Positions 2,925-53,725 of a DNA stretch of 64,000 nucleotides are shown one piece after another; positions within the stretch are counted from its first letter, which is position 1, and every line of letters begins with the position of its first letter. The DNA lies in NCBI GenBank assembly GCA_964612055.1, contig CAZTBI010000001.1:228824-292823 (forward strand), written 5' to 3'. The notes beneath the pieces are model-generated. The model did no database searches. It was given only the letters and a program-made list of their open reading frames with translations, and had not been told where the DNA came from. Both the position numbers and the translations under genes were made by a program. Source of the stretch: an uncultured Bdellovibrionales bacterium (GTDB lineage: Bacteria > Patescibacteriota > Minisyncoccia > Moranbacterales > UBA1568).

Positions 2925-3020
2925 AGAACCCACTGCCTTATCCGTCCTCGTTTCTCTCGGCCGAGACAAGCCGCTTGGTTTACCTCGGCTCGCTTTAGCG
3001 AGACGGGCTACTCCCCAAGA
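2925..3020 (-). repeat. Degenerate partial copy of the 5' half of tRNA-Gln, interrupted by a palindromic insertion of about 65 nt
   Basis: Three blocks match the intact tRNA in order: TGGGGAGTAGC, CCAAGCGG and TAAGGCAGTGGGTTCTGGTC. Hairpin-forming inserts lie between them (CCGTC...GACGG ends). The T arm and 3' acceptor are absent. Confidence 0.55.
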
Positions 3021-16656: not shown

Positions 16657-17238
16657 TTACTTTAGAAAAGGATATTTCTCCTGAAAGAAAGTTTTGAGAC
16701 TAACAAAATTATCTTCTCTTACATGACCCCATCCTTGAAGATCTTGCTTTCTACTTTGTGCAATGAATATATCAATTACAGAAAAGAAATCTTTTATTTG
16801 AGATGCATAACTCTTAATTATTTTCCCTAGCTCTTCTTCATCGATAAAGTTGTGCTCTTTATTTTTTTTGAGAACATACATAAGCTCCTGAAGAAGCATA
16901 AAAAAGTCGGTTGCTTCTTCTCTCACCATTTCTTCAGCTCCACCTCCCGTGTACTGAATGCCACCTTTTGTTATCTTAAAATCGTTTAATGGAATACGTT
17001 TGACTAGAATGCTCTGAAGATACTCATAAAAATGAAGGAAGAAAAATTTTTCGTAGTACTCTTGAAACTTTCTGCCATAGTAAAAGGTTTGTGTTACCTT
17101 TTTCTGAAAATCTCTAACACTTTTTTGGTTTTTCTGATGTAAGTATGCAGCAGCTGCAACTGCTATCCCTAAACCAGATAATAAATCACCCATGTTTCCT
17201 GCTTCTTGACTAGTGACGAGTTTAATCAAATCTTCCAT
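16657..17238 (-). CDS. Hypothetical protein, AT-rich
   Basis: 193-aa ORF with no recognisable motifs. Confidence 0.4.
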   Translation of the reverse strand: MEDLIKLVTSQEAGNMGDLLSGLGIAVAAAAYLHQKNQKSVRDFQKKVTQTFYYGRKFQEYYEKFFFLHFYEYLQSILVKRIPLNDFKITKGGIQYTGGGAEEMVREEATDFFMLLQELMYVLKKNKEHNFIDEEELGKIIKSYASQIKDFFSVIDIFIAQSRKQDLQGWGHVREDNFVSLKTFFQEKYPFLK

Positions 17239-44722: not shown

Positions 44723-46372
44723 CTACTTCTTCTTACAAGCTTCAAGAAAAGCGACAAAGAGCGGGTGCGGGTGAAGCAGCGAGGACTGGAATTCCGGGTG
44801 GAACTGGGTCGCCAGGAAAAACGGGTGCTTCTCTTTCGGAAGCTCGGCAATCTCCATGAGCACACCATTCGGCGAAGTCGCGGAGAATACCATACCAGCC
44901 TTTTTCAACTGCTCTACATATTCTGGATTCACTTCATAGCGATGGCGATGACGCTCAAGAATCCTTTCTGTACCGTAGGCTTTGGCAGCCAGAGTCTTTG
45001 GCAGAACCTTGGCTTCATAGTGACCGAGGCGCATCGTCGCCCCATAATTTTTCTTGCGGAGGTTCTCTTTTTGCTCCGGCATGATATCGACTACTGGCTG
45101 GGTCGTTTTTTGATTGACTTCGGTGGTATGAGCCTCTTTCAATCCCACCACGTGACGGGCATATTCGATGACGGCCAGTTGCATGCCGTAGCACAAACCA
45201 AAATATGGAATCTGATTTTCACGACAGAAACGAATAGCATTAATCTTTCCTTCAATACCACGACTCCCGAAACCGCCAGGAATAATAATACCGTCATACT
45301 TTTTGAGTCCCTTCAATCTCTTCGCATCCCCTTCAAACTCGGTACTATCAATCCAGGTCAATTCTGCTTTGCGCCCCACCTGACAGGCAGCGTGTTTCAA
45401 TGCTTCAATAACGCTAATATAGGCATCAGAGAGGACAAAATCACCGGTCTTAAAATACTTCCCTACTACACCAATTTTCACTACCTCCTTGGCCGCTTTG
45501 ATACGCTTCACCCGCTTCTCCCATTCCCCGATACCAATCACTTTCTTCGCCTTCAAACCAAGCTTCTTCAAAAGGATGTCGCTCAGGTGATCCTTCTCAA
45601 AATTTACTGGTACATCATAGATACTCTCAACATCTGGGGCACTGATGACGTCTTCCCTGTGAACATTGCAAAAAACCGCAATCTTTTCTTTGCGTTTCTC
45701 ATCCAGCGGTCGATCAGCCCGAGCAATGATAATATCCGGTTGAATGCCAGTACCATTTAAGGTTCGGACAGCATGTTGTGTTGGTTTCGTCTTCATCTCC
45801 CCTACCTTGGATGGCGTAGGAATATAGCTCACAATGGCGGTGATCACATCTCCTGGCTGCTCGGTTTTGAGCATACGGATAGCTTCGAGAAAAAGGATGT
45901 TCTCATACTCCCCAACTGTTCCACCAATTTCAATGATCGCGATATCAGCCTTGGCTTGTTTCACCGCCCTCTTGATGCGACTGATCACTTCCATCGGAAT
46001 ATGTGGCACCACCTGGACACATTTCCCGGCATATTCCAGGTTCCTCTCCTTTTCAATGACGGTTTTGTAGACCAAGCCGGTCGTCATGTAGTTATCCCGA
46101 GTCAGTTCAATATTCAAAAAACGCTCATAATTCCCCATGTCTTGATCAGTCTCGTACCCATCTTTCAAAACAAACACTTCGCCGTGCTCGGTCGGGTTCA
46201 TAGTGCCAGCATCGACGTTGATGTACGGATCAATCTTGAGCGCCGTCACATTGAAGCCCTTCCCCTGAAGAATCTTACCTATAGAGGACGTCGCGATACC
46301 CTTACCGACACCGCTCATCACACCGCCTACTACGAAAATATACTTGGTCTGCTTCGCTTTTTGTTTTGCCAT
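44723..46372 (-). CDS. pyrG: CTP synthase
   Basis: Full-length synthase domain plus a glutamine amidotransferase domain. Confidence 0.95.
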   Translation of the reverse strand: MAKQKAKQTKYIFVVGGVMSGVGKGIATSSIGKILQGKGFNVTALKIDPYINVDAGTMNPTEHGEVFVLKDGYETDQDMGNYERFLNIELTRDNYMTTGLVYKTVIEKERNLEYAGKCVQVVPHIPMEVISRIKRAVKQAKADIAIIEIGGTVGEYENILFLEAIRMLKTEQPGDVITAIVSYIPTPSKVGEMKTKPTQHAVRTLNGTGIQPDIIIARADRPLDEKRKEKIAVFCNVHREDVISAPDVESIYDVPVNFEKDHLSDILLKKLGLKAKKVIGIGEWEKRVKRIKAAKEVVKIGVVGKYFKTGDFVLSDAYISVIEALKHAACQVGRKAELTWIDSTEFEGDAKRLKGLKKYDGIIIPGGFGSRGIEGKINAIRFCRENQIPYFGLCYGMQLAVIEYARHVVGLKEAHTTEVNQKTTQPVVDIMPEQKENLRKKNYGATMRLGHYEAKVLPKTLAAKAYGTERILERHRHRYEVNPEYVEQLKKAGMVFSATSPNGVLMEIAELPKEKHPFFLATQFHPEFQSSLLHPHPLFVAFLEACKKK

Positions 46373-46543: not shown

Positions 46544-46984
46544 TTACTCCGATTCTATCAGAACGGTAAAGCTCGCCTTCACTCCGTGACCGAAATCCGC
46601 TGAAACAGGGAATTCACCCACTTCTTTGAGAGCCTTATCTAAAACGATCACTTCTTTACTCACCTTGATACCCAGAGCTTCCAAAGCAGTAGCCACTTCT
46701 TCGCGCCCTACAGAACCGAAGAGTTTTCCTTTTTCAGCCTTGCTCTTGATCACCACTTTCTTGCCAGAAAGTGAAGTAGCTACCGTACGGTGCTCCTCAG
46801 TTGTTTTGGCCATTTCTTCCTTCCGCTTCGCAATAAAACGTTCCGCCTGTTTGATCGCACCAGGCGTCGCCAAATCAGCCAACCCTTCCGGAAGGAGATA
46901 GTTAAATCCGTAACCATTTTTTACTTCTTTGATGTCCAAAGCTTTTCCTAAGCCTTTCACATCCGTCAAAAGAATCACCTTCAT
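46544..46984 (-). CDS. rplI: 50S ribosomal protein L9
   Basis: MKVILLTDVKGLGK. Confidence 0.85.
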   Translation of the reverse strand: MKVILLTDVKGLGKALDIKEVKNGYGFNYLLPEGLADLATPGAIKQAERFIAKRKEEMAKTTEEHRTVATSLSGKKVVIKSKAEKGKLFGSVGREEVATALEALGIKVSKEVIVLDKALKEVGEFPVSADFGHGVKASFTVLIESE

Positions 46985-47124
46985 AGTGCAGTCATTCATC
47001 TATTACTCCGGTCAGCATACCGTACTTCCAGCCTTTTGGCAAGCAACCCGTCTTAATAAAAGAGTATGTCTCGGTAAGAAAAAAGCCTTGAGGGAGATAC
47101 CCACAAGGCCTGGAGCCCGAAAGC

Positions 47125-47730
47125 CTACGTCGCTGAAAATTCCATACTGAGCAAAGACTCAACGCGGAACCCATTCTTCGTTCCTGCTGGCCGGCCGTCG
47201 AACTCGATAACCGTGCCGATGGCGGAAACATTGGCATTGAGGCTCAATGCCTCGATACTCTTGAGGCAGGTCTGGATCCGTGGCCAGCGCCCGGGAGCCA
47301 GAAATGGCTCAATCAGAATGGCGTTAGCGCCTCGGAGCACCTCTGGCGCATGCAAAGAGAACGCATACGTGCCATCGTGATTCTCCTTCATGGAGAGAAA
47401 GGACACCGGACGATCCGATGAATACAACCCCTCCAGAATGCGTGCCACGCTGTGAGCCAGAACGGCGCCATGGTCATCGATCCCGATAACCAAAGTCACT
47501 TCCTTGGTATGGAAGAGCCTCGCCAGACGACTGGCGAACACCTCGGTTTCTGCTGGCCGAAGCAACATCGCCTTGAGTAGCGGGAGTTCCGTCAGGATTC
47601 CGTCATCGCCGATAGCGGCACTCGCTATCACCGAAAACAACTTTTGGCGAAATTTGATGTCTTCCTCCAAAAGTCCAGTGGGACGCAGCGTCCTCACCTC
47701 AGCAAGGGTACCTACTGTTGATGCGCTCAT
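47125..47730 (-). CDS. Hypothetical protein, high GC (about 57%), occupying the position of the missing ppaC body
   Basis: ORF with a VIGIDDHG segment and no firm family assignment. Confidence 0.4.
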   Translation of the reverse strand: MSASTVGTLAEVRTLRPTGLLEEDIKFRQKLFSVIASAAIGDDGILTELPLLKAMLLRPAETEVFASRLARLFHTKEVTLVIGIDDHGAVLAHSVARILEGLYSSDRPVSFLSMKENHDGTYAFSLHAPEVLRGANAILIEPFLAPGRWPRIQTCLKSIEALSLNANVSAIGTVIEFDGRPAGTKNGFRVESLLSMEFSAT

Positions 47731-47812
47731 AACAACTTCCTCCTCAGAAAGGTCTATGATGAAAAAGGGCACAAAGAACGACGTTTTATTATTCCACGAA
47801 ACTGTCTATCAG

Positions 47813-48058
47813 TCAATAGGATAGGTCTATCTTTTGAGAAAAACAAAGAGTGTTAACCAAGCCATGAGCATCTGGAAGTTCCTGTGGATATGAAATAGCA
47901 AAGCGATTCAGAATGTATTTTGCCTCTTCGTGTGGTTCACCAAAAATCCCTACCACTGCAATTTTGCCCATTTTCTGTAAAAACTCAGCATAAGCAACAG
48001 AGCCTGACACGCCGTCAAGGTCTGGATTGACATAACAAGTAACAAGAATTGGTTTCAT
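47813..48058 (-). pseudogene. N-terminal 81-codon fragment of a DHH-family Mn-dependent inorganic pyrophosphatase (ppaC-like), truncated
   Basis: MKPILVTCYVNPDLDGVSGSVAYAEFLQKMGK...EPHEEAKYILNRF matches PpaC/DHH N-termini and stops after 81 codons. The ORF-track N-terminal extension is a read-through of the tRNA-Ala sequence. Confidence 0.45.
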
Positions 48059-48077
48059 AGAGATATCAAAAATTTTG

Positions 48078-48148
48078 TGGACCTGGCGAGAATCGGACTC
48101 GCGCCTCTGCAATGCGAATGCAGCGTTGTACCACTTAACTACAGGCCC
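48078..48148 (-). tRNA. tRNA-Ala, anticodon CGC
   Basis: Acceptor GGGCCTG/CAGGTCC with the G3:U70 wobble pair, anticodon stem CTGCA/TGCAG, loop TTCGCAT. No CCA is encoded. Confidence 0.8.
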
Positions 48149-48277
48149 AAAGGAAACGAAGGTATTGTAGAGCAACTAAAGAGAAAACTCAAGGAAAAAT
48201 GAAAGCTCGCGAAAACCCTGGTTCAGGTCTTCGCGAGCGGGACTAAGGAGAGAGCCTTAGTACTCCTGGAACCCCTT

Positions 48278-48502
48278 TCAGTTGGGGACGGTGGGCATCT
48301 GCGGGAGCCGCGGATCCGACTCGGGCTCAGGGCTCGGGCGCGGACGACGGCCTTCCGTGCCGATGTAGATCGGCGCCTGATCCATCACCGCTGCGACGAT
48401 CATCGCCTTGGGCGGCTCCGGGGGCGGGGCGGCCGGGGCAGCAGCGGCGGCGGCGATGGCCATGGACATGACAGCCAAACGCGCCAGTGTCTTTTTCTGC
48501 AT
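48278..48502 (-). CDS. Small Ala/Pro-rich secreted protein, about 70% GC
   Basis: AAGGAG SD 8 nt upstream; signal peptide MQKKTLARLAVMSMAIAAAAAA. Confidence 0.45.
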   Translation of the reverse strand: MQKKTLARLAVMSMAIAAAAAAPAAPPPEPPKAMIVAAVMDQAPIYIGTEGRRPRPSPEPESDPRLPQMPTVPN

Positions 48503-48761
48503 TGGAGTAACTCCTTGTTTCCCTTTGGGCGGTTCCTTGGACTATTCCTCGGACTCCTCAGGGACACCTAGAATAGCACAAAAAAAGACCCCTGTAAAGC
48601 CCCGCACCTTTTTGGCATTATTCCCCACAATGAAACCAATCCTTACGGCACCTAGTTTTTATTTATATAGTATGTAAGCACCCCCACTAAAATGATTGCA
48701 GAGATACTCCTGCCAAAAAGGTGCGGGGTAAAGAGTCCTTCGTGGCTTAGAAAAGGTGTTT

Positions 48762-49229
48762 TTAGAAATCCAATACCGGAACTACCTCAGTTTCCAGTAT
48801 TGTATCCCCTTCTCCAAAGAGAAATTTCGTACGAAATTTTTTACCAGTCAGGAACACCGGCACCCAATGAATGTCGTCCGGCCACATCTCATCGTAAGGA
48901 ATAGCATCAGTCGTGAACCACTGCGGTCGCATCTCTTCGGTTTCTCGCGGTTCCCCTGTCCAAGTATCAACCCGAAAAACGTGCACTTCCAAAATATCAC
49001 CTCGCGCATTTTCAAATTCAAACTCATGAATACCAACTTTTTCCATCTCCGTGATCACGATACCGCACTCTTCCTCAGTTTCTCGTTTGGCAGCAGCCTC
49101 AATCGTTTCCCCTGCTTCTACCTTCCCGCCAAAGCCATTCCACCGTCCCGCGCCAAACCCACGCTTCTTCATACCTAGAAGTATCTGATTTTCCCGAAGC
49201 ACAAGACACAGTGTCAGTATTTTCCGCAT
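48762..49229 (-). CDS. Nudix hydrolase
   Basis: Nudix box GGKVEAGETIEAAAKRETEEECG. Confidence 0.8.
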   Translation of the reverse strand: MRKILTLCLVLRENQILLGMKKRGFGAGRWNGFGGKVEAGETIEAAAKRETEEECGIVITEMEKVGIHEFEFENARGDILEVHVFRVDTWTGEPRETEEMRPQWFTTDAIPYDEMWPDDIHWVPVFLTGKKFRTKFLFGEGDTILETEVVPVLDF

Positions 49230-49791: not shown

Positions 49792-50376
49792 TTATTCACC
49801 AAAGAGTTTCTTTTCTTCTTTCCGAAGCAGTTCCATAAACTCATCAAAGTACGGCTGTATTTCTGGCGAGAGAGCTATTTTAGCTTTCTTATGCTCATAG
49901 AGCATTTCAAGGGTGATCTTTTTTTCTTGCCAGGTTCGGCCATTATCAAGATACACTTTCAACATTGGCTCAACCTTATCAAGAGCATAGACAAAACGAC
50001 TTTCCGGATCTTCTTTGGTCACATAGCCCTTGATAGCGGTATGTATTTCCGGAACATCTGGGAATTCTCCCACCAGTCGCTCGGCTGCCAAACGTTCGCG
50101 CTCCGGTTTCGATGCCAAGAACTCTTTATCCTCACTGTATATATAAGTGTCGCCAGCGTACACCTCGACCAAATCATGAGCTAGAGCATACGAAAAGACT
50201 TTTTCCTTATCAAGTGACAGATGCTCACTTTCGATAATATACCAAGCCAGCATTGCGAGACTATACGAATGCTCTACATCATTCTCCCAACGCTCCGAAC
50301 CCGGCACGCGGATCACGCGCTCCACTTTCTGCAACTCATTCAAAATTTTCGCAAAGCCAAGCAGTTTCTGAAGCAT
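49792..50376 (-). CDS. HD-domain phosphohydrolase (YfbR-like 5'-deoxynucleotidase family)
   Basis: H...HD...D motif: VEHSYSLAMLA, ALAHDLVEVYAGD. Confidence 0.7.
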   Translation of the reverse strand: MLQKLLGFAKILNELQKVERVIRVPGSERWENDVEHSYSLAMLAWYIIESEHLSLDKEKVFSYALAHDLVEVYAGDTYIYSEDKEFLASKPERERLAAERLVGEFPDVPEIHTAIKGYVTKEDPESRFVYALDKVEPMLKVYLDNGRTWQEKKITLEMLYEHKKAKIALSPEIQPYFDEFMELLRKEEKKLFGE

Positions 50377-50382
50377 ATTTTC

Positions 50383-50838
50383 TTATATCTTGAATCCTGA
50401 TTTTTTGATAATTTTCAATTGATCACGGAAGGCACTATGAAGAGGTTTTGGTAACTTACTCGATCGAAACCAAGCAAGTTCTTCCATCTTATCCGGCTCA
50501 CCAATTTTCACTTTTTTGGGATCAACTTGCGCAACAAAGAGAAATGCAATCCAATGGGTCTTAGTAGTACCGTTCTTTCGCAAAACATTGCGCGCACCAA
50601 AAAACTGAAGCTTCTTCGCTCTTACACAATACTCTTCCCGTATTTCCCGGATGACTCCTTGTTCAGGGGTTTCTCCAAATTCCAATGATCCTGATCCGGT
50701 ATCCCAACGGCCAACTTCATCTCGACAATTCTTACTCCGTTTGTGCATGAGAAGATTTCCTCTTCCATCGTGACAAAAAAATACACATGTCACCCCGATA
50801 AAATCTACACCCTTTTTCAGATCAAATGATTTTTTCAT
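50383..50838 (-). CDS. Nudix hydrolase
   Basis: Nudix box GSGSLEFGETPEQGVIREIREEYCV. Start at MKKSFDLKKG. Confidence 0.75.
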   Translation of the reverse strand: MKKSFDLKKGVDFIGVTCVFFCHDGRGNLLMHKRSKNCRDEVGRWDTGSGSLEFGETPEQGVIREIREEYCVRAKKLQFFGARNVLRKNGTTKTHWIAFLFVAQVDPKKVKIGEPDKMEELAWFRSSKLPKPLHSAFRDQLKIIKKSGFKI

Positions 50839-51029
50839 ATCGGCTCTCCAAATACTTCTTCTTTTACCCTTTTCACTTCGTCCTCTTTCTCGATAATAAC
50901 TCCTTTGTGAAGTTTGTAGAGAAGCGGGATCACGCCACAATTTTCACATTTTCCCCAATTGCAACCCTTTTGCTTATGATGAAGCCTACGACACATCCCC
51001 AGTTCTTTTTCAAAAGTTTCCTTGTCCAT
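50835..51029 (-). CDS. Small Cys4 protein (about 64 aa), translationally coupled to the secA stop
   Basis: The ATG lies 3 nt after the secA TAG; CNWGKCENCG and two further Cys; ATGA overlap with the downstream Nudix start. Confidence 0.35.
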   Translation of the reverse strand: MDKETFEKELGMCRRLHHKQKGCNWGKCENCGVIPLLYKLHKGVIIEKEDEVKRVKEEVFGEPI

Positions 51030-51031
51030 AT

Positions 51032-53725
51032 CTATGCCCCATGACACTTCTTATATTTCTTACCGCTCCCACAGGGACAAGGATCGTTTCGGCCAACTAT
51101 TTCTTCATTAACAATGGGGGCTTGTTTCTGGGTTTCGCCCTGATTACTGCCACCGCCCGCTTGAGCCTCTCCTTTCAGCGTCGCAAAGGATTCAATATTT
51201 TCACTGGCACCACGAAATTGCATCTCGCGAGGGCGCTCCTGCTCCACAGTTCCGGTAGCACTCACTTTCAGGATCGTCATCAAGTACGTCTTGCGCACCG
51301 TATCCATCAGTCCAAGGAAGAGATCGAAGGCTTCCCGCTTATATTCGATAAGCGGATCGCGCTGACCATAGCCACGAAGCCCAATTCCCTGTCGCAAATA
51401 ATCAATCTCATCTAGGTGATTCATCCAGAGCGTATCAAGGGAGCGAAGGTAGAGCGACTTTTGAATGAGGCTCCAGGTCTCTTTACCAATCATTTTCTCT
51501 TTCTGGTTGTAGACCTTTTTGGCTTCACCGAGCAGGTGTTCGAGAATAAGATTTTTCTTTTCAATTTCATCCTTGGAGCGATCATCACGAATAGCCTCAA
51601 GCTTCTTCAATGCCTCTTTTTCATTAAGCGTCGAAAACATGGCATTGGCTTCGTTCACGATCTCCTGCATGTTCCACTCGCCCTCTTCGACAGCGGTATG
51701 GAAACCAATCACATGATCCAACTCTTCGGAGAGCAAGCGCAGCGTTTCGTTCTCAAAATCTCCCGTTTCAAGAATGGCACGACGCTTGCGGTAGACGACT
51801 TCGCGCTGCTTGTTCATGACATCATCATAGTCGAGCACGTGCTTGCGAATATCAAAGTTGAAGCCTTCAATCTTCGACTGGGCGCTCTCGATCGTTTTCG
51901 ATATAATGCCATTTTGAATCGGCTCATCATCAGGCAAACCGAGCGTCGTCATCATACCCTTCATTTTCTCGCCACCGAAACGACGCATCAGCTCATCTTC
52001 GAGCGACACAAAGAACTGCGACACTCCAGGGTCACCCTGACGTCCAGCACGACCACGAAGCTGATTGTCGATACGACGGGCCTCGTGACGCTCGGTACCG
52101 ATGATGGTGAGTCCACCCAGTTCCCGCACGCCATCGCCTAATTTGATGTCCGTACCACGACCAGCCATGTTCGTTGCGATAGTGATGGATCCTTTTTGGC
52201 CGGCATTAGCAATAATATGCGCTTCCCGTTCGTGATTCTTGGCATTCAATACCTCATGGGTGATACCTTCATGCTGCAGTAACGTACTCAAGTACTCAGA
52301 TTTTTCAATAGCGACTGTGCCAATAAGGGCTGGCTGGCCAGTGGTATGGATCTCTTTGATATGTTCCACAATAGCCCGAAACTTTGCTTCCTCCGTCTTA
52401 TAGACAATATCCGGCAAGTCCTTGCGTGTCATCGAACGATTGGTCGGGATTTCGAGCACATCGAGCTTGTATACCTTGGAAAGTTCCTCAGCAGAAGTCG
52501 AGGCGGTACCAGTCATACCAGCCAGTTTCTCATAAAGACGGAAGTAATTCTGAAAAGTAATAGTAGCCAAGGTGCGAGATTCGCGCTGTACCGTTACGCC
52601 TTCTTTGGCTTCAATAGCCTGATGGAGTCCCTCACTATAGCGGCGACCTGGCATAAGCCGTCCGGTGAAGTCATCTACGATAATCACCTGATCATCTTTT
52701 ACGACGTAGTCACGATCGAGTTTGAAAATGATATTGGCTTTGAGTGATTGTTCCAGATGATGGACATATTGGACATTGCCGGAGGCATAGATATTGCCCA
52801 TCCCCAAAAGCCGTTCGACAGAGTTCATACCTTCATCGGTCAGCGTCACCACCTTCATCTTTTCATCAATCACGTAGTCTTTCTCTTCTTTCAGATTCGG
52901 AACAATCTTCGCAAAGCGTTCGTAGAGCTTGGTCGATTCACTATCTGGCGCCGAAATGATAAGCGGGGTGCGGGCTTCATCAATCAAAATAGAGTCTACT
53001 TCATCGACAATAGCGAAATGAAGATGACGCTGTGTCATCTCTTCTAAGGTTGAAACCATGTTGTCACGCAGGTAGTCAAAACCAAATTCGTTATTGGTAC
53101 CGTAGGTGATATCAGTTGCATAGGCCTCTTTTCTCGAGATAGGGACCAAATTTTCCATCTCCACGCTGACCTCATCACGATCTTCGACATTGGAAGTGTA
53201 ACGATACGAAACCCCCTGACCAACAATACAAGAAGTAGTAAGCCCAAGCGCCTCATACACCTTGCCCATCCAGTTACAATCACGCTTAGCAAGGTAATCA
53301 TTGACCGTCACCACGTGCACACCTTTCCCTGTTAGAGCATTGAGATAAATCGGCAGTGTCGATGTCAGCGTCTTTCCTTCACCCGTTTTCATCTCAGCAA
53401 TTTTCCCCCGATGAAGAGCAATGCCACCTAACATCTGTACATCGTAGTGACGCTCACCGATGACACGCCTCGCTACTTCTCGCACCACCGCATAGGTTTC
53501 GGGCAACAAATCCTCCAGCGTTTCGCCGTCCGTCAGTCGCTTCTTGAATACCTCGGCTTTCCCTCGTAGCTCATCAGAAGAAAGAGCCTGAAGTGCTTCT
53601 TCAAAGGTATTTATTTTTTCAACAATCGGGCGCAGTTTATCCACCTCGCGCTCATTCGAACCAAAAAGTTTTTCCAAAAATGACATAAGTATACGTAATC
53701 GATAAAAGTTCTTCCATTGTAGCAA
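51032..53725 (-). CDS. secA: Preprotein translocase ATPase SecA
   Basis: DEAD-like motor domains and a C-terminal zinc finger [14 protein letters not shown]. Confidence 0.95.

Follow-up and report, generated by a model that had tools for sequence, protein, structure and literature searches.

The locus lies between a tRNA-Ala(CGC) gene and rplI in a window of 64 kb, by which we mean the whole stretch of 64,000 nucleotides that was analysed, and every one of its features is on the minus strand (Table 1). The 3′ end of the tRNA reads ...GATTCTCGCCAGGTCCAC, and the G3:U70 pair pointed out in the initial annotation can be read directly from the letters of its acceptor stem (GGGCCTG/CAGGTCC). Rfam searches, both of the whole window and as a sensitive scan of 46900–48800, gave no noncoding RNA except tRNA, GC-rich patches included. 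Eighteen nucleotides past the tRNA begins an ORF of 81 codons (the stub), with its ATG at 48058 and a TGA stop at 47813–47815. The deposited form (P0001) is a 120-aa version with a TTG start at 48175, which reads through the tRNA-Ala gene, as had been recognized at the outset. The promoter-like site upstream of the tRNA is the only candidate that could drive the stub, which would at most be co-transcribed with tRNA-Ala. The neighbouring ORF, ending at 47125, starts at GTG 47772 or, more likely, at ATG 47730, and public gene calls hold only the ATG version, of 201 aa. The hairpin 3′ of this gene was missed by the automated scan because its loop exceeds 8 nt.

Table 1. Features of the tRNA-Ala to rplI locus, in window coordinates.
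Feature	Position	Strand	Basis or remark
Promoter-like site TTGAGT-17-TACAAT, upstream of tRNA-Ala	48164..48192	-	Consensus match only
tRNA-Ala(CGC), conserved left anchor of the variable interval	48077..48148	-	ARAGORN; Rfam 64 bits
DHH gene leader, 18 nt	48059..48076	-	Homologous to the leader after the R element in L033, L045 and L050
Entire 81-codon chimeric ORF, pseudogene-like remnant	47813..48058	-	
Part of the stub that comes from a DHH-DHHA2 gene of about 308 aa (its codons 1-65)	47864..48058	-	
Junction, deletion or illegitimate recombination	47863..47866	-	End of DHH homology vs start of MFS identity
Last 13 codons of MFS402 (Tet(A)-like MFS transporter), stop included (MAWLTLFVFLKR and stop)	47827..47865	-	
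Presence/absence segment, 782 bp, with the 201-aa gene	47045..47826	-	
Promoter-like site TTGACT-17-TGnAATAAT (10/12), 201-aa gene	47788..47816	-	Overlaps the stub stop codon
201-aa gene, predicted type I phosphoribosyltransferase fold	47125..47730	-	GC 0.554
Hairpin AGGCCTTG...CAAGGCT, then T-run, 3′ of the 201-aa gene	47078..47111	-	By eye only
rplI promoter-like site TTGCCA-17-TATGCT, conserved right anchor	47014..47044	-	Consensus match
rplI (ribosomal protein L9), core gene right of the variable interval	46544..46999	-	

Residues 1–65 of the stub product match positions 2–66 of the 308 in NCBIfam PRK05427 (E = 4.5e-9) and the S. mutans PpaC structure (PDB 1i74; E = 1e-5), and are 73–91% identical to intact relatives, in agreement with the initial description of a truncated DHH-family gene with the N-terminus of a DHH/Mn-dependent pyrophosphatase. 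Motif I, H-x-N-P-D-x-D in PpaC, reads C-Y-V-N-P-D-L-D in the stub, where D13 and D15 are present and H9 is replaced by Y, and truncation has removed D75, the DHH motif (H97-H98), position 149 and the DHHA2 domain. The claim that no remainder of the gene exists held for the whole 64-kb window, in which tblastn with two full-length relatives returned nothing further (E > 2); tblastn with E. coli Ppa gave no match to another pyrophosphatase in the window. The DHH part has a GC content of 40.6% and a GC3 of 0.32 (mean 0.49), respectively 1.8 and 2.3 standard deviations below the window genes.

The 65 DHH codons are followed by 16 out-of-frame codons. Homology to DHH genes extends to 47863–47866 and identity to the MFS402 gene runs from 47865 on, with a microhomology of at most about 3–4 nt (CATG), so that the stub is fused out of frame to the final 13 codons of MFS402. 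Read in the frame of MFS402 the tail is intact; the stub, which reads it in another frame, stops 11 nt beyond the MFS402 stop. Over window positions 47878–46961 the identity with contig L003 is 98.8%, and L003 keeps an intact 402-aa MFS gene that stops exactly at the position of the stub tail. A mis-join of the DHH fragment to the MFS/201-aa region might be suspected, as the source is a metagenome-assembled genome and the locus is polymorphic and prone to mis-assembly. However, the junction recurs at 100% identity in two Logan contigs, L001 and L002 (window 48126–44371), from runs (SRR16481186 and SRR16481187) that may share the study of the genome; it is therefore not the artefact of one assembly, and we give a chimera hardly any credence. 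The evidence supports a real rearrangement: there is an insertion/deletion junction, as the initial annotation held, but it is located inside the stub and not, as was then thought, at the border with the GC-rich ORF.

The same annotation saw the GC-rich gene as standing in place of the remainder of ppaC, which would mean that a foreign gene had inserted in ppaC at the tRNA site and taken the place of the 3′ part of ppaC. The stub does adjoin the tRNA, the gene beside it has a higher GC content (55%), and the 201-aa segment is polymorphic, the 782 bp being present in the window and in L001–L003 and absent in L004–L006. Nevertheless, the anatomy of the junction contradicts such an insertion, as 39 nt of the MFS 3′ end separate the DHH part from the 201-aa segment, and L003 has the same segment after its intact MFS gene, with identical flanks. 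In addition, no DHH remainder lies downstream, the window has neither an integrase nor an att duplication, and the 201-aa homologues elsewhere in Moranbacteria lie near tRNA-Ala or rplI and are always 4–8 points GC-richer than their own contigs. We consider the insertion very improbable. The 201-aa gene has a promoter-like site to itself and is followed by a hairpin and a T-run; it appears to be an independent unit and, on this reading, did not cause the truncation of the DHH gene. Its GC content was measured as 55.4%, rather than the 57% first given, which is 1.9 standard deviations above the long ORFs of the window (n = 57, mean 47.8%, standard deviation 4.1%); four other ORFs equal or nearly equal it, and the gene is GC-rich, yet no dramatic outlier.

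The 201-aa family is small and lineage-specific: out of 1.8 billion, 24 representatives reached E ≤ 1e-3. An AF2 model of the protein made from four sequences (pLDDT 54) was replaced by one made from a 21-sequence alignment (pLDDT 89.8), and the predicted structure has the phosphoribosyltransferase (PRT) fold, its top Foldseek matches in the PDB being APRT, XPRT, OPRT and PurR (E = 1.7e-9, TM 0.62). The likeness to type I phosphoribosyltransferases (APRT, XPRT, OPRT and the effector domain of PurR) is therefore one of predicted fold, at a TM of about 0.6 and a Foldseek E of about 1e-9, whereas the sequence identity is 18–20%. Pfam and NCBIfam profiles give the family sub-threshold PRTase hints only, the score of the protein against PF00156 being 20.4 bits, below the gathering threshold of 26.3. 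The canonical PRPP motif, two acidic residues with a T/S-G-x-T loop, was not found in the protein; its PRPP loop is degenerate (ILIEPFLAPGRW) and reads I-L-I-E-P-F-L-A-P-G-R-W, the EPFLAPGRW part being a further difference from the known enzymes. E141, P142 and W149 are invariant in four close family members, and in the broader alignment of 21 sequences P142 alone is still nearly so.

The gene from which the stub derives belongs to a DHH-DHHA2 family of more than 737 full-length clusters of about 308 aa, which is widespread in Patescibacteria and which NCBI names only 'DHH family phosphoesterase'. Intact relatives can be aligned with PpaC over their full length (E = 3e-30) and resemble it (B. 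subtilis 1k23, S. mutans 1i74) in length, about 308 aa, and in two-domain architecture, the proteins of L033 and L045 carrying both DHH and DHHA2; the stub aligns to residues 1–65 only, and the window has no DHHA2. The family keeps D13, D15, D75 and H97, but differs from PpaC in having Y9, R98 and N149 in place of H9, H98 and D149, with Y at position 9 in at least 90% of its members. These three PpaC positions are two metal ligands and a catalytic histidine, H9 being a metal ligand. The label 'ppaC' is doubtful because of these substitutions, and a pyrophosphatase activity of the Patescibacteria subfamily is at most putative. This widespread subfamily with altered catalytic residues is an observation in its own right, and a literature search returned nothing on it, or on tRNA islands in Patescibacteria.

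It is likewise doubtful that ppaC, the name first given to the gene, stands here for a housekeeping gene. It is missing from the tRNA-Ala/rplI locus in most relatives, and the comparison suggested with the initial annotation found it intact there in two. In L033 the order is tRNA-Ala, a 268-aa gene, the DHH gene (313 aa) and rplI. In L045 the DHH gene (P0070, 308 aa, about 91% identical to stub residues 1–64) is followed by four further called genes, an MFS402 orthologue (77%) and rplI. The stub probably does not mean the loss of a housekeeping enzyme.

Could the 81-aa product nevertheless have a function of its own, for example as a regulatory peptide consisting of the DHH N-terminus? Its reading frame is intact from an ATG on and could be co-transcribed with tRNA-Ala. 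However, its exact product forms a cluster of one, a singleton among 15 billion proteins, and not a conserved stand-alone family such as the initial annotation had considered as the contrary case; a look-up of the exact 120-aa product in assemblies gave no match either. The last 16 residues are an out-of-frame reading of the MFS gene, the conserved residues and motif listed above are gone along with the DHHA2 substrate-binding domain, and a 65-codon fragment presumably cannot form the two-domain active site. A functional small protein seems to us most improbable, and the 81-codon ORF is probably a non-functional relic.

The interval in which it lies is highly variable. Among about 25 Moranbacteria contigs compared, the distance from tRNA-Ala to the rplI start ranged from 57 to 6096 nt in the 13 loci with both anchors; L030 has the longest interval, 6.1 kb, and in L011 the site is empty, with 9 nt from the tRNA end to the conserved rplI flank. 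Homology of the window with all relatives resumes at the rplI promoter-like site. The cargo of the relatives consists of varying genes, all on the same strand and some of them housekeeping-like (queA). Strains L003–L006 share an identical L9 protein with the window yet differ in cargo: L003 has MFS402 and the 201-aa gene, the latter placed after the end of MFS402 and flanked as it is in the window, L004 and L005 have MFS405 and MFS402 without the 201-aa gene, and the interval of L006 holds different cargo. These comparisons support the view that the tRNA-Ala flank is a hot spot for gene gain and loss in Moranbacteria. Repeats of the tRNA 3′ end lie downstream of the functional tRNA in L003, L004, L005, L027, L028, L033 and L037. 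In the window, no second copy of GATTCTCGCCAGGTCCAC was found even at up to three mismatches, and there were no integrase or recombinase domains in its cargo ORFs or in 20 scanned cargo ORFs of relatives. The idea of a tRNA integration site thus stands as regards the hot spot and the tRNA remnants in relatives, but not as regards the window itself, which lacks a duplicated tRNA end and an integrase. A phage origin was rejected, because scans of viral contigs for the 3′ end of tRNA-Ala, for a full-length DHH relative and for the R element described below gave no matches.

We think it probable that the 81-codon ORF is a dead DHH fragment, fused by deletion to the tail of an MFS gene in a strain-variable interval, in a case of ordinary genome decay. 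The ancestral order would have been tRNA-Ala, the DHH gene, possibly more genes, MFS402, the 201-aa gene and rplI, with which the gene order of L045 agrees. One illegitimate event at a microhomology of at most 3–4 nt may then have joined DHH codon 65 to about codon 390 of the MFS gene, either as a deletion in situ or as an illegitimate end-join during allelic replacement, and would have removed the rest of the DHH domain, D75 and the DHH motif with it, along with all of DHHA2 and almost the entire transporter gene. The exact parent arrangement, in which one locus would have the DHH gene beside the tRNA as well as MFS402 and the 201-aa gene, was not seen in any contig examined, so that we infer a one-step deletion rather than see it.

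In the case of allelic replacement, a homology-facilitated illegitimate recombination, incoming DNA of another Moranbacteria strain with tRNA-Ala followed by the DHH gene would have undergone homologous recombination at its tRNA/NUDIX end, while its other end was joined illegitimately to an internal site of the resident MFS402 gene, and the stub would never have been full-length in this lineage. Exchange of the interval between strains is evident, the DHH fragment is AT-rich for the genome, and its nucleotide identity to L045 is 83.6%, compared with 76% for the flanking core gene pyrG and 70% for rplI, a similarity that may fit recent lateral import at least as well as in-situ decay. On the other hand, the N-terminal residues of DHH proteins are strongly conserved family-wide, which is enough alone to raise the identity; the low GC content may be intrinsic, as the DHH gene of L045 is also AT-rich relative to its own genome; and no donor sequence was found. 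We regard such a replacement as a possible but rather unlikely origin of the junction.

Many cargo genes of the relatives are bounded by a conserved element, R, which we note as a side observation. It is about 85 nt long, conserved across species and terminates in ...GTAGTCCAC; its opposite strand carries a conserved ORF of 28–33 codons (VDYLLLNWNsIIAELxxWQELGMAIEQAQ), and a Pfam search with the 31-aa micro-ORF gave no match. Three independent presence/absence comparisons break exactly at the end of R, and in L050 and L053 the DHH gene has R on either side; no copy was found in the window. R as a structured RNA was rejected, as it has no consensus structure (alifold −1.5 kcal/mol) and no Rfam match. 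A decayed tRNA 3′ half was rejected as the sole explanation, only the terminal GTCCAC being convincingly alike; R is found after tRNA-Arg(TCT) as well, a tRNA without this ending. The tRNA-adjacent accessory genes of Moranbacteria might be single-gene cassettes (leader, gene, R), shuffled without an integrase or by one acting in trans, a reading that we hold to be distinctly doubtful. If it were true, the stub would be the 5′ relic of one cassette directly at the tRNA-Ala terminus (...GGTCCAC), and the cassette-shuffling system would be an undescribed one.

Under the preferred explanation, decay by deletion, the deposited 120-aa 'hypothetical protein', which overlaps the tRNA gene, would belong in the record as a pseudogene fragment and should not be entered as a pyrophosphatase when metabolism is reconstructed from this reduced CPR genome. 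The locus would be a clean, small example of accessory-gene turnover at a tRNA-anchored hot spot in streamlined Patescibacteria, in which an efflux transporter, a DHH phosphoesterase and a PRTase-like protein come and go and are erased by short-microhomology deletions.

Two known systems invite comparison. Integron cassette arrays and CALINs are similar in that the units of the relatives are same-strand, mostly single-gene and in many cases bounded by R, but they differ in having IntI, none of which was found here, and attC hairpins, no conserved hairpin being seen in R; moreover, R also sits beside tRNA-Arg without cargo, and the window is without R. The likeness to tRNA-linked genomic islands lies in variable content bordered precisely by the 3′ end of a tRNA and the promoter of a core gene, in the direct repeats of the tRNA 3′ end in relatives, and in near-identical strains that differ in content. 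Such islands have an integrase, whereas there is none in the interval of the window or of 13 relatives; here the units are single genes of 0.8–1.3 kb, and the window has no duplicated tRNA end. The stub is a gene remnant within a tRNA-linked variable region.

The stub, an ORF of 81 amino acids, as the initial annotation had it, from the ATG at 48058, is most likely a remnant made by one illegitimate join between a DHH-family gene and a transporter gene. Its first part does resemble the N-terminus of Mn-dependent pyrophosphatases and DHH proteins, as was originally proposed; it matches NCBIfam PRK05427 over positions 2-66 of 308 (E = 4.5e-9), PDB entries 1i74 and 1wpp (E = 1e-5 to 1e-4) and, below threshold, Pfam DHH (E = 0.005). 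Two full-length DHH relatives used as tblastn queries matched the window only at 48058-47861/47867, with nothing else in the 64 kb (E > 2), in agreement with the original view that no ppaC remainder exists. The region 48126-44371 was recovered at 100% identity in two Logan contigs from different runs. In the public record, the ORF appears as a 120-aa version with a TTG start at 48175 (P0001; 47813-48175, minus strand), which overlaps the whole tRNA-Ala gene and, as already suspected, translates it; this gene call is an annotation artefact. The tRNA-Ala itself is real, being both called by ARAGORN and matched in Rfam, and its G3:U70 pair was seen by direct reading. A promoter-site scan found no promoter in the 18 nt between the tRNA gene and the stub.

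Close-strain contigs with an identical L9 were found by exact-protein look-up of the 201-aa product and L9, and the junction was mapped by blastn of these contigs against the window and by direct reading. The contig L003 is 98.8% identical to window 47878-46961; upstream of the match, L003 has an intact MFS transporter gene of 402 aa (MFS402), which resembles the Tet(A)/(B)/(C) family (182 bits, under the 475-bit NCBIfam cut-off). Perfect identity starts at ATGGCTTGG (47865), and window 47865-47827, read in the MFS frame, gives MAWLTLFVFLKR and a stop, the end of the transporter with its last 12 residues. The DHH homology extends to codon 65/66, where ...D-A/T-H-E-F... in the closest relatives corresponds to ...D-A-H-G in the stub. 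Because the DHH homology ends there and the MFS identity begins at 47865, the breakpoint lies at 47863-47866, where the two sides have no more than about 3-4 nt in common; the final 16 stub codons are the out-of-frame transporter tail and an 11-nt spacer. The junction is a real join, but the MFS tail separates the DHH fragment from the GC-rich ORF, and the truncation was not caused by the 201-aa gene, which had been seen as replacing the remainder.

The GC content of the 201-aa gene, given as 57% and described as high, is 0.554 (GC3 0.634), and other window ORFs stand at 0.575, 0.562 and 0.562. Compared with the window's 57 long ORFs (mean GC 0.478, sd 0.041; mean GC3 0.493, sd 0.076), both this gene and the DHH part of the stub (GC 0.406, GC3 0.317) fall in the tails, about 1.8-2.3 sd from the mean. 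The ORF of lowest GC in the window is a separate one of 193 aa (0.337, GC3 0.29); it stands far under the mean and is a stronger compositional outlier than either. Homologues of the 201-aa gene are consistently 4-8 GC points over their own contigs, so the GC excess is a family trait and not the mark of a recent import from a distant donor. The family is tiny, with 4 clusters in a 5.8-billion-protein set and 24 representatives at E ≤ 1e-3 among 1.84 billion, and members lie near tRNA-Ala(CGC) or rplI in other Moranbacteria-like contigs (L017, L019). An AlphaFold model from 21 sequences (pLDDT 89.8) resembles the type I phosphoribosyltransferases APRT, XPRT and OPRT, and PurR (Foldseek E ~1e-9, TM ~0.62, 18-20% identity); the PRPP loop is degenerate (ILIEPFLAPGRW) and the match to Pfam PF00156 is sub-threshold. 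The gene has a promoter-like site, TTGACT-17-(TG)AATAAT (47816-47788), and, read by eye, a downstream hairpin and T-run. It is carried on a 782-bp segment (47045-47826) that the window shares with the near-identical strains L001-L003 and that L004-L006 lack; in L004 and L005, the rplI promoter region lies within 6 nt of the MFS stop.

Intact DHH genes occur at this locus in relatives. L033 (JBAQNF010000066.1, Moraniibacteriota) has the order tRNA-Ala, tRNA remnant, 268-aa gene, the ~85-nt element R, a 313-aa DHH-DHHA2 gene and rplI; its DHH protein is 73% identical to stub residues 1-64, and the L9 of that genome 74% identical. Closer still is the protein P0070 (~91% over residues 1-64), whose contig, L045, reads R tail, DHH, 340-aa gene, 252-aa gene, MFS399, DUF805, MFS387 (77% identical to MFS402), rplI and pyrG. 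With DHH on the tRNA side and the MFS402 orthologue beside rplI, this is the order that a single deletion would require to yield the chimera in the window. A DHH cassette would have been placed directly after the tRNA, and one deletion or illegitimate end-join would have fused DHH codon 65 to transporter codon ~390; the catalytic core and the DHHA2 domain would have been lost, together with almost all of the transporter gene and whatever lay in between, and the 201-aa gene and rplI would have retained their own promoters. Lateral import of the DHH segment, instead of decay in situ, is a serious alternative, because the DHH fragment is closer to L045 (83.6% nucleotide identity) than are pyrG (76%) and rplI (70%). 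The stub is a pseudogene fragment, presumably functionless, and lies in a variable stretch of a CPR genome that is anchored by a tRNA gene; it is real but ordinary.

This variability was seen in the longer contigs of the pyrG 90% cluster (L007-L012) and in representatives of 22 GTDB species, retrieved with L9 (L023-L044). Synteny is kept on both sides, and the tRNA-Ala(CGC)-rplI interval measures 57, 129, 662, 876, 1077 (window), 1100, 1386, ~2000-2400, 4174 or 6096 nt; in the shortest, L011, only 9 nt separate the tRNA end from the conserved flank. Homology with the window always restarts at ~47044, the promoter-like TTGCCA-17-TATGCT site of rplI. The called cargo is nearly all on the same strand and includes MFS transporters, VTT/DedA, NUDIX, PAS, PGA_cap, queA, DHH-DHHA2 and unknowns; no recombinase genes were found among the scanned interval ORFs. 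In three more distant species, queA (tRNA ribosyltransferase-isomerase) lies within the variable interval, directly upstream of rplI; it may have been the original occupant and have disappeared from the clade of the window.

Several relatives carry remnants of the tRNA-Ala 3' end (GGGATTCTCGCCAGGTCCAC, with a conserved G/C-rich arm in front of it) 50-300 nt downstream of a functional tRNA-Ala gene; L003 has the tRNA, a 37-nt 3' half and then GGGATTCTCGCCAGGTCCAC, and L004 and L005 one remnant each. Such remnants are what site-specific integration at the 3' end of a tRNA gene classically leaves behind, and they may record serial integration or replacement, with almost no element DNA remaining in between; alternatively, they may stem from tandem tRNA duplication followed by decay. 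The functional 3' halves differ between lineages. Distant species share the remnant, a degree of conservation that would not be expected of a neutral scar. The suggestion of an integration site is partly supported, by the variable interval and by the remnants in relatives, but the window holds a single copy of the tRNA-Ala 3' end, no second being found, and the scanned ORFs lack a recombinase.

The borders of single-gene cassettes in relatives are often marked by R (3' end ...GTAGTCCAC), with 13 copies in the first locus set and 15 more, matched by the last 26 nt, on 13 metagenome stretches; none was found in the window or in viral contigs. Presence/absence boundaries fall at the R end in three comparisons: the MFS405 cassette (L004 against L003), the right border of L006 against the empty site of L011, and the DHH leader, which comes after R in L033, L045 and L050 but after the ...GGTCCAC of the tRNA in the window. 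In L050 and L053, an R copy stands on either side of the DHH gene, and R directly follows tRNA-Arg(TCT), without cargo, in L052 and L059. R contains a promoter-like TGCTATAAT, and its opposite strand has a 28-33-codon ORF conserved in length and sequence (VDYLLLNWN..ELxxWQ.LGMAIEQAQ), with codon-position variation of 253/158/276 and no Pfam match. Conserved RNA structure and an Rfam match were sought for R and neither was found. It may serve as a site for recombination or as a promoter module; it may also be a micro-gene, or no more than an ordinary dispersed repeat.

Coordinates of features in the window and in contigs of relatives
Feature	Position	Strand	Remark
secA	51032-53725	-	
NUDIX	50383-50940	-	
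HD	49792-50376	-	
NUDIX	48762-49229	-	
74-aa Pro/Ala-rich ORF	48278-48502	-	
Terminator-like hairpin	48205-48238	-	beside 74-aa ORF
tRNA-Ala(CGC)	48077-48148	-	ARAGORN; Rfam 64 bits
81-codon stub	47813-48058	-	
201-aa ORF	47125-47730	-	
rplI	46544-46999	-	
pyrG	44723-46372	-	
193-aa ORF	16657-17238	-	
tRNA-Ala 3'-end remnants	L003:123-291; L004:57-145; L033:4967-5044; L027:4997-5048; L028:5071-5122; L037:6396-6448		
R copies	L004:1393-1476; L006:636-721; L030:1830-1916, 2870-2955; L033:5916-5995; L050:1941-1966, 2977-3002		others besides
queA	L023:4926-5975; L027:5811-6872; L039:4329-5477		
DHH homologues, one in-frame TAG each	L013:165-1091; L014:3938-4336		codons 136 and 92

The window is part of a 485,659-bp NCBI contig, and its pyrG and rplI products group with proteins named Candidatus Moranbacteria or Moraniibacteriota (Patescibacteria, CPR). 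The same NUDIX, tRNA-Ala, rplI synteny occurs in L023, L024, L027-L032 and L034, which are TPA MAG records titled 'uncultured Bdellovibrionales bacterium', with L9 74-82% identical to that of the window; these titles are probably taxonomic mislabels. The 74-aa ORF (GC 70%, GC3 0.81) has a hydrophobic, signal-peptide-like N-terminus, and no Rfam match was found for the region of this ORF and the adjacent hairpin. Homologues by position, between NUDIX and tRNA-Ala in relatives, have 80-116 aa, 36% identity and also ~70% GC; the FTGEQR with which its closest relatives end is missing from the window copy.

A search with the L033 DHH protein gave at least 737 clusters (E ≤ 1e-10), nearly all of ~308 aa and from Patescibacteria, which go under the name 'DHH family phosphoesterase' at NCBI or 'manganese-dependent inorganic pyrophosphatase' at JGI. 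The homologues in L013 and L014, on low-GC contigs, each have an in-frame TAG in an otherwise well-conserved reading frame, and L014 also codes for an AEP-type primase-helicase; TAG could be recoded here, in a recoded phage or mobile element, or the two genes could be nonsense pseudogenes. A tblastn search of the 64-kb window with E. coli Ppa (approximate query sequence) gave no match. Most relatives have no DHH gene at this locus, and its presence differs from strain to strain; the stub is therefore no record of the loss of a core enzyme. The label ppaC is doubtful, given this absence and the residues of the family. Full-length relatives can be aligned with B. subtilis PpaC over the entire length (E = 3e-30), and in a 17-sequence alignment the Patescibacteria proteins retain D13, D15, D75 and H97. 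In family II pyrophosphatases, H9 and D149 serve as metal ligands, and H98 is a catalytic residue. Whereas PpaC has H9, H98 and D149, the Patescibacteria DHH-DHHA2 proteins, a widespread subfamily (>700 clusters, P0061-P0180), have Y9, R98 and N149; their substrate may well differ from PPi despite the JGI name, and they are best called family II PPase-like DHH-DHHA2 phosphoesterases.
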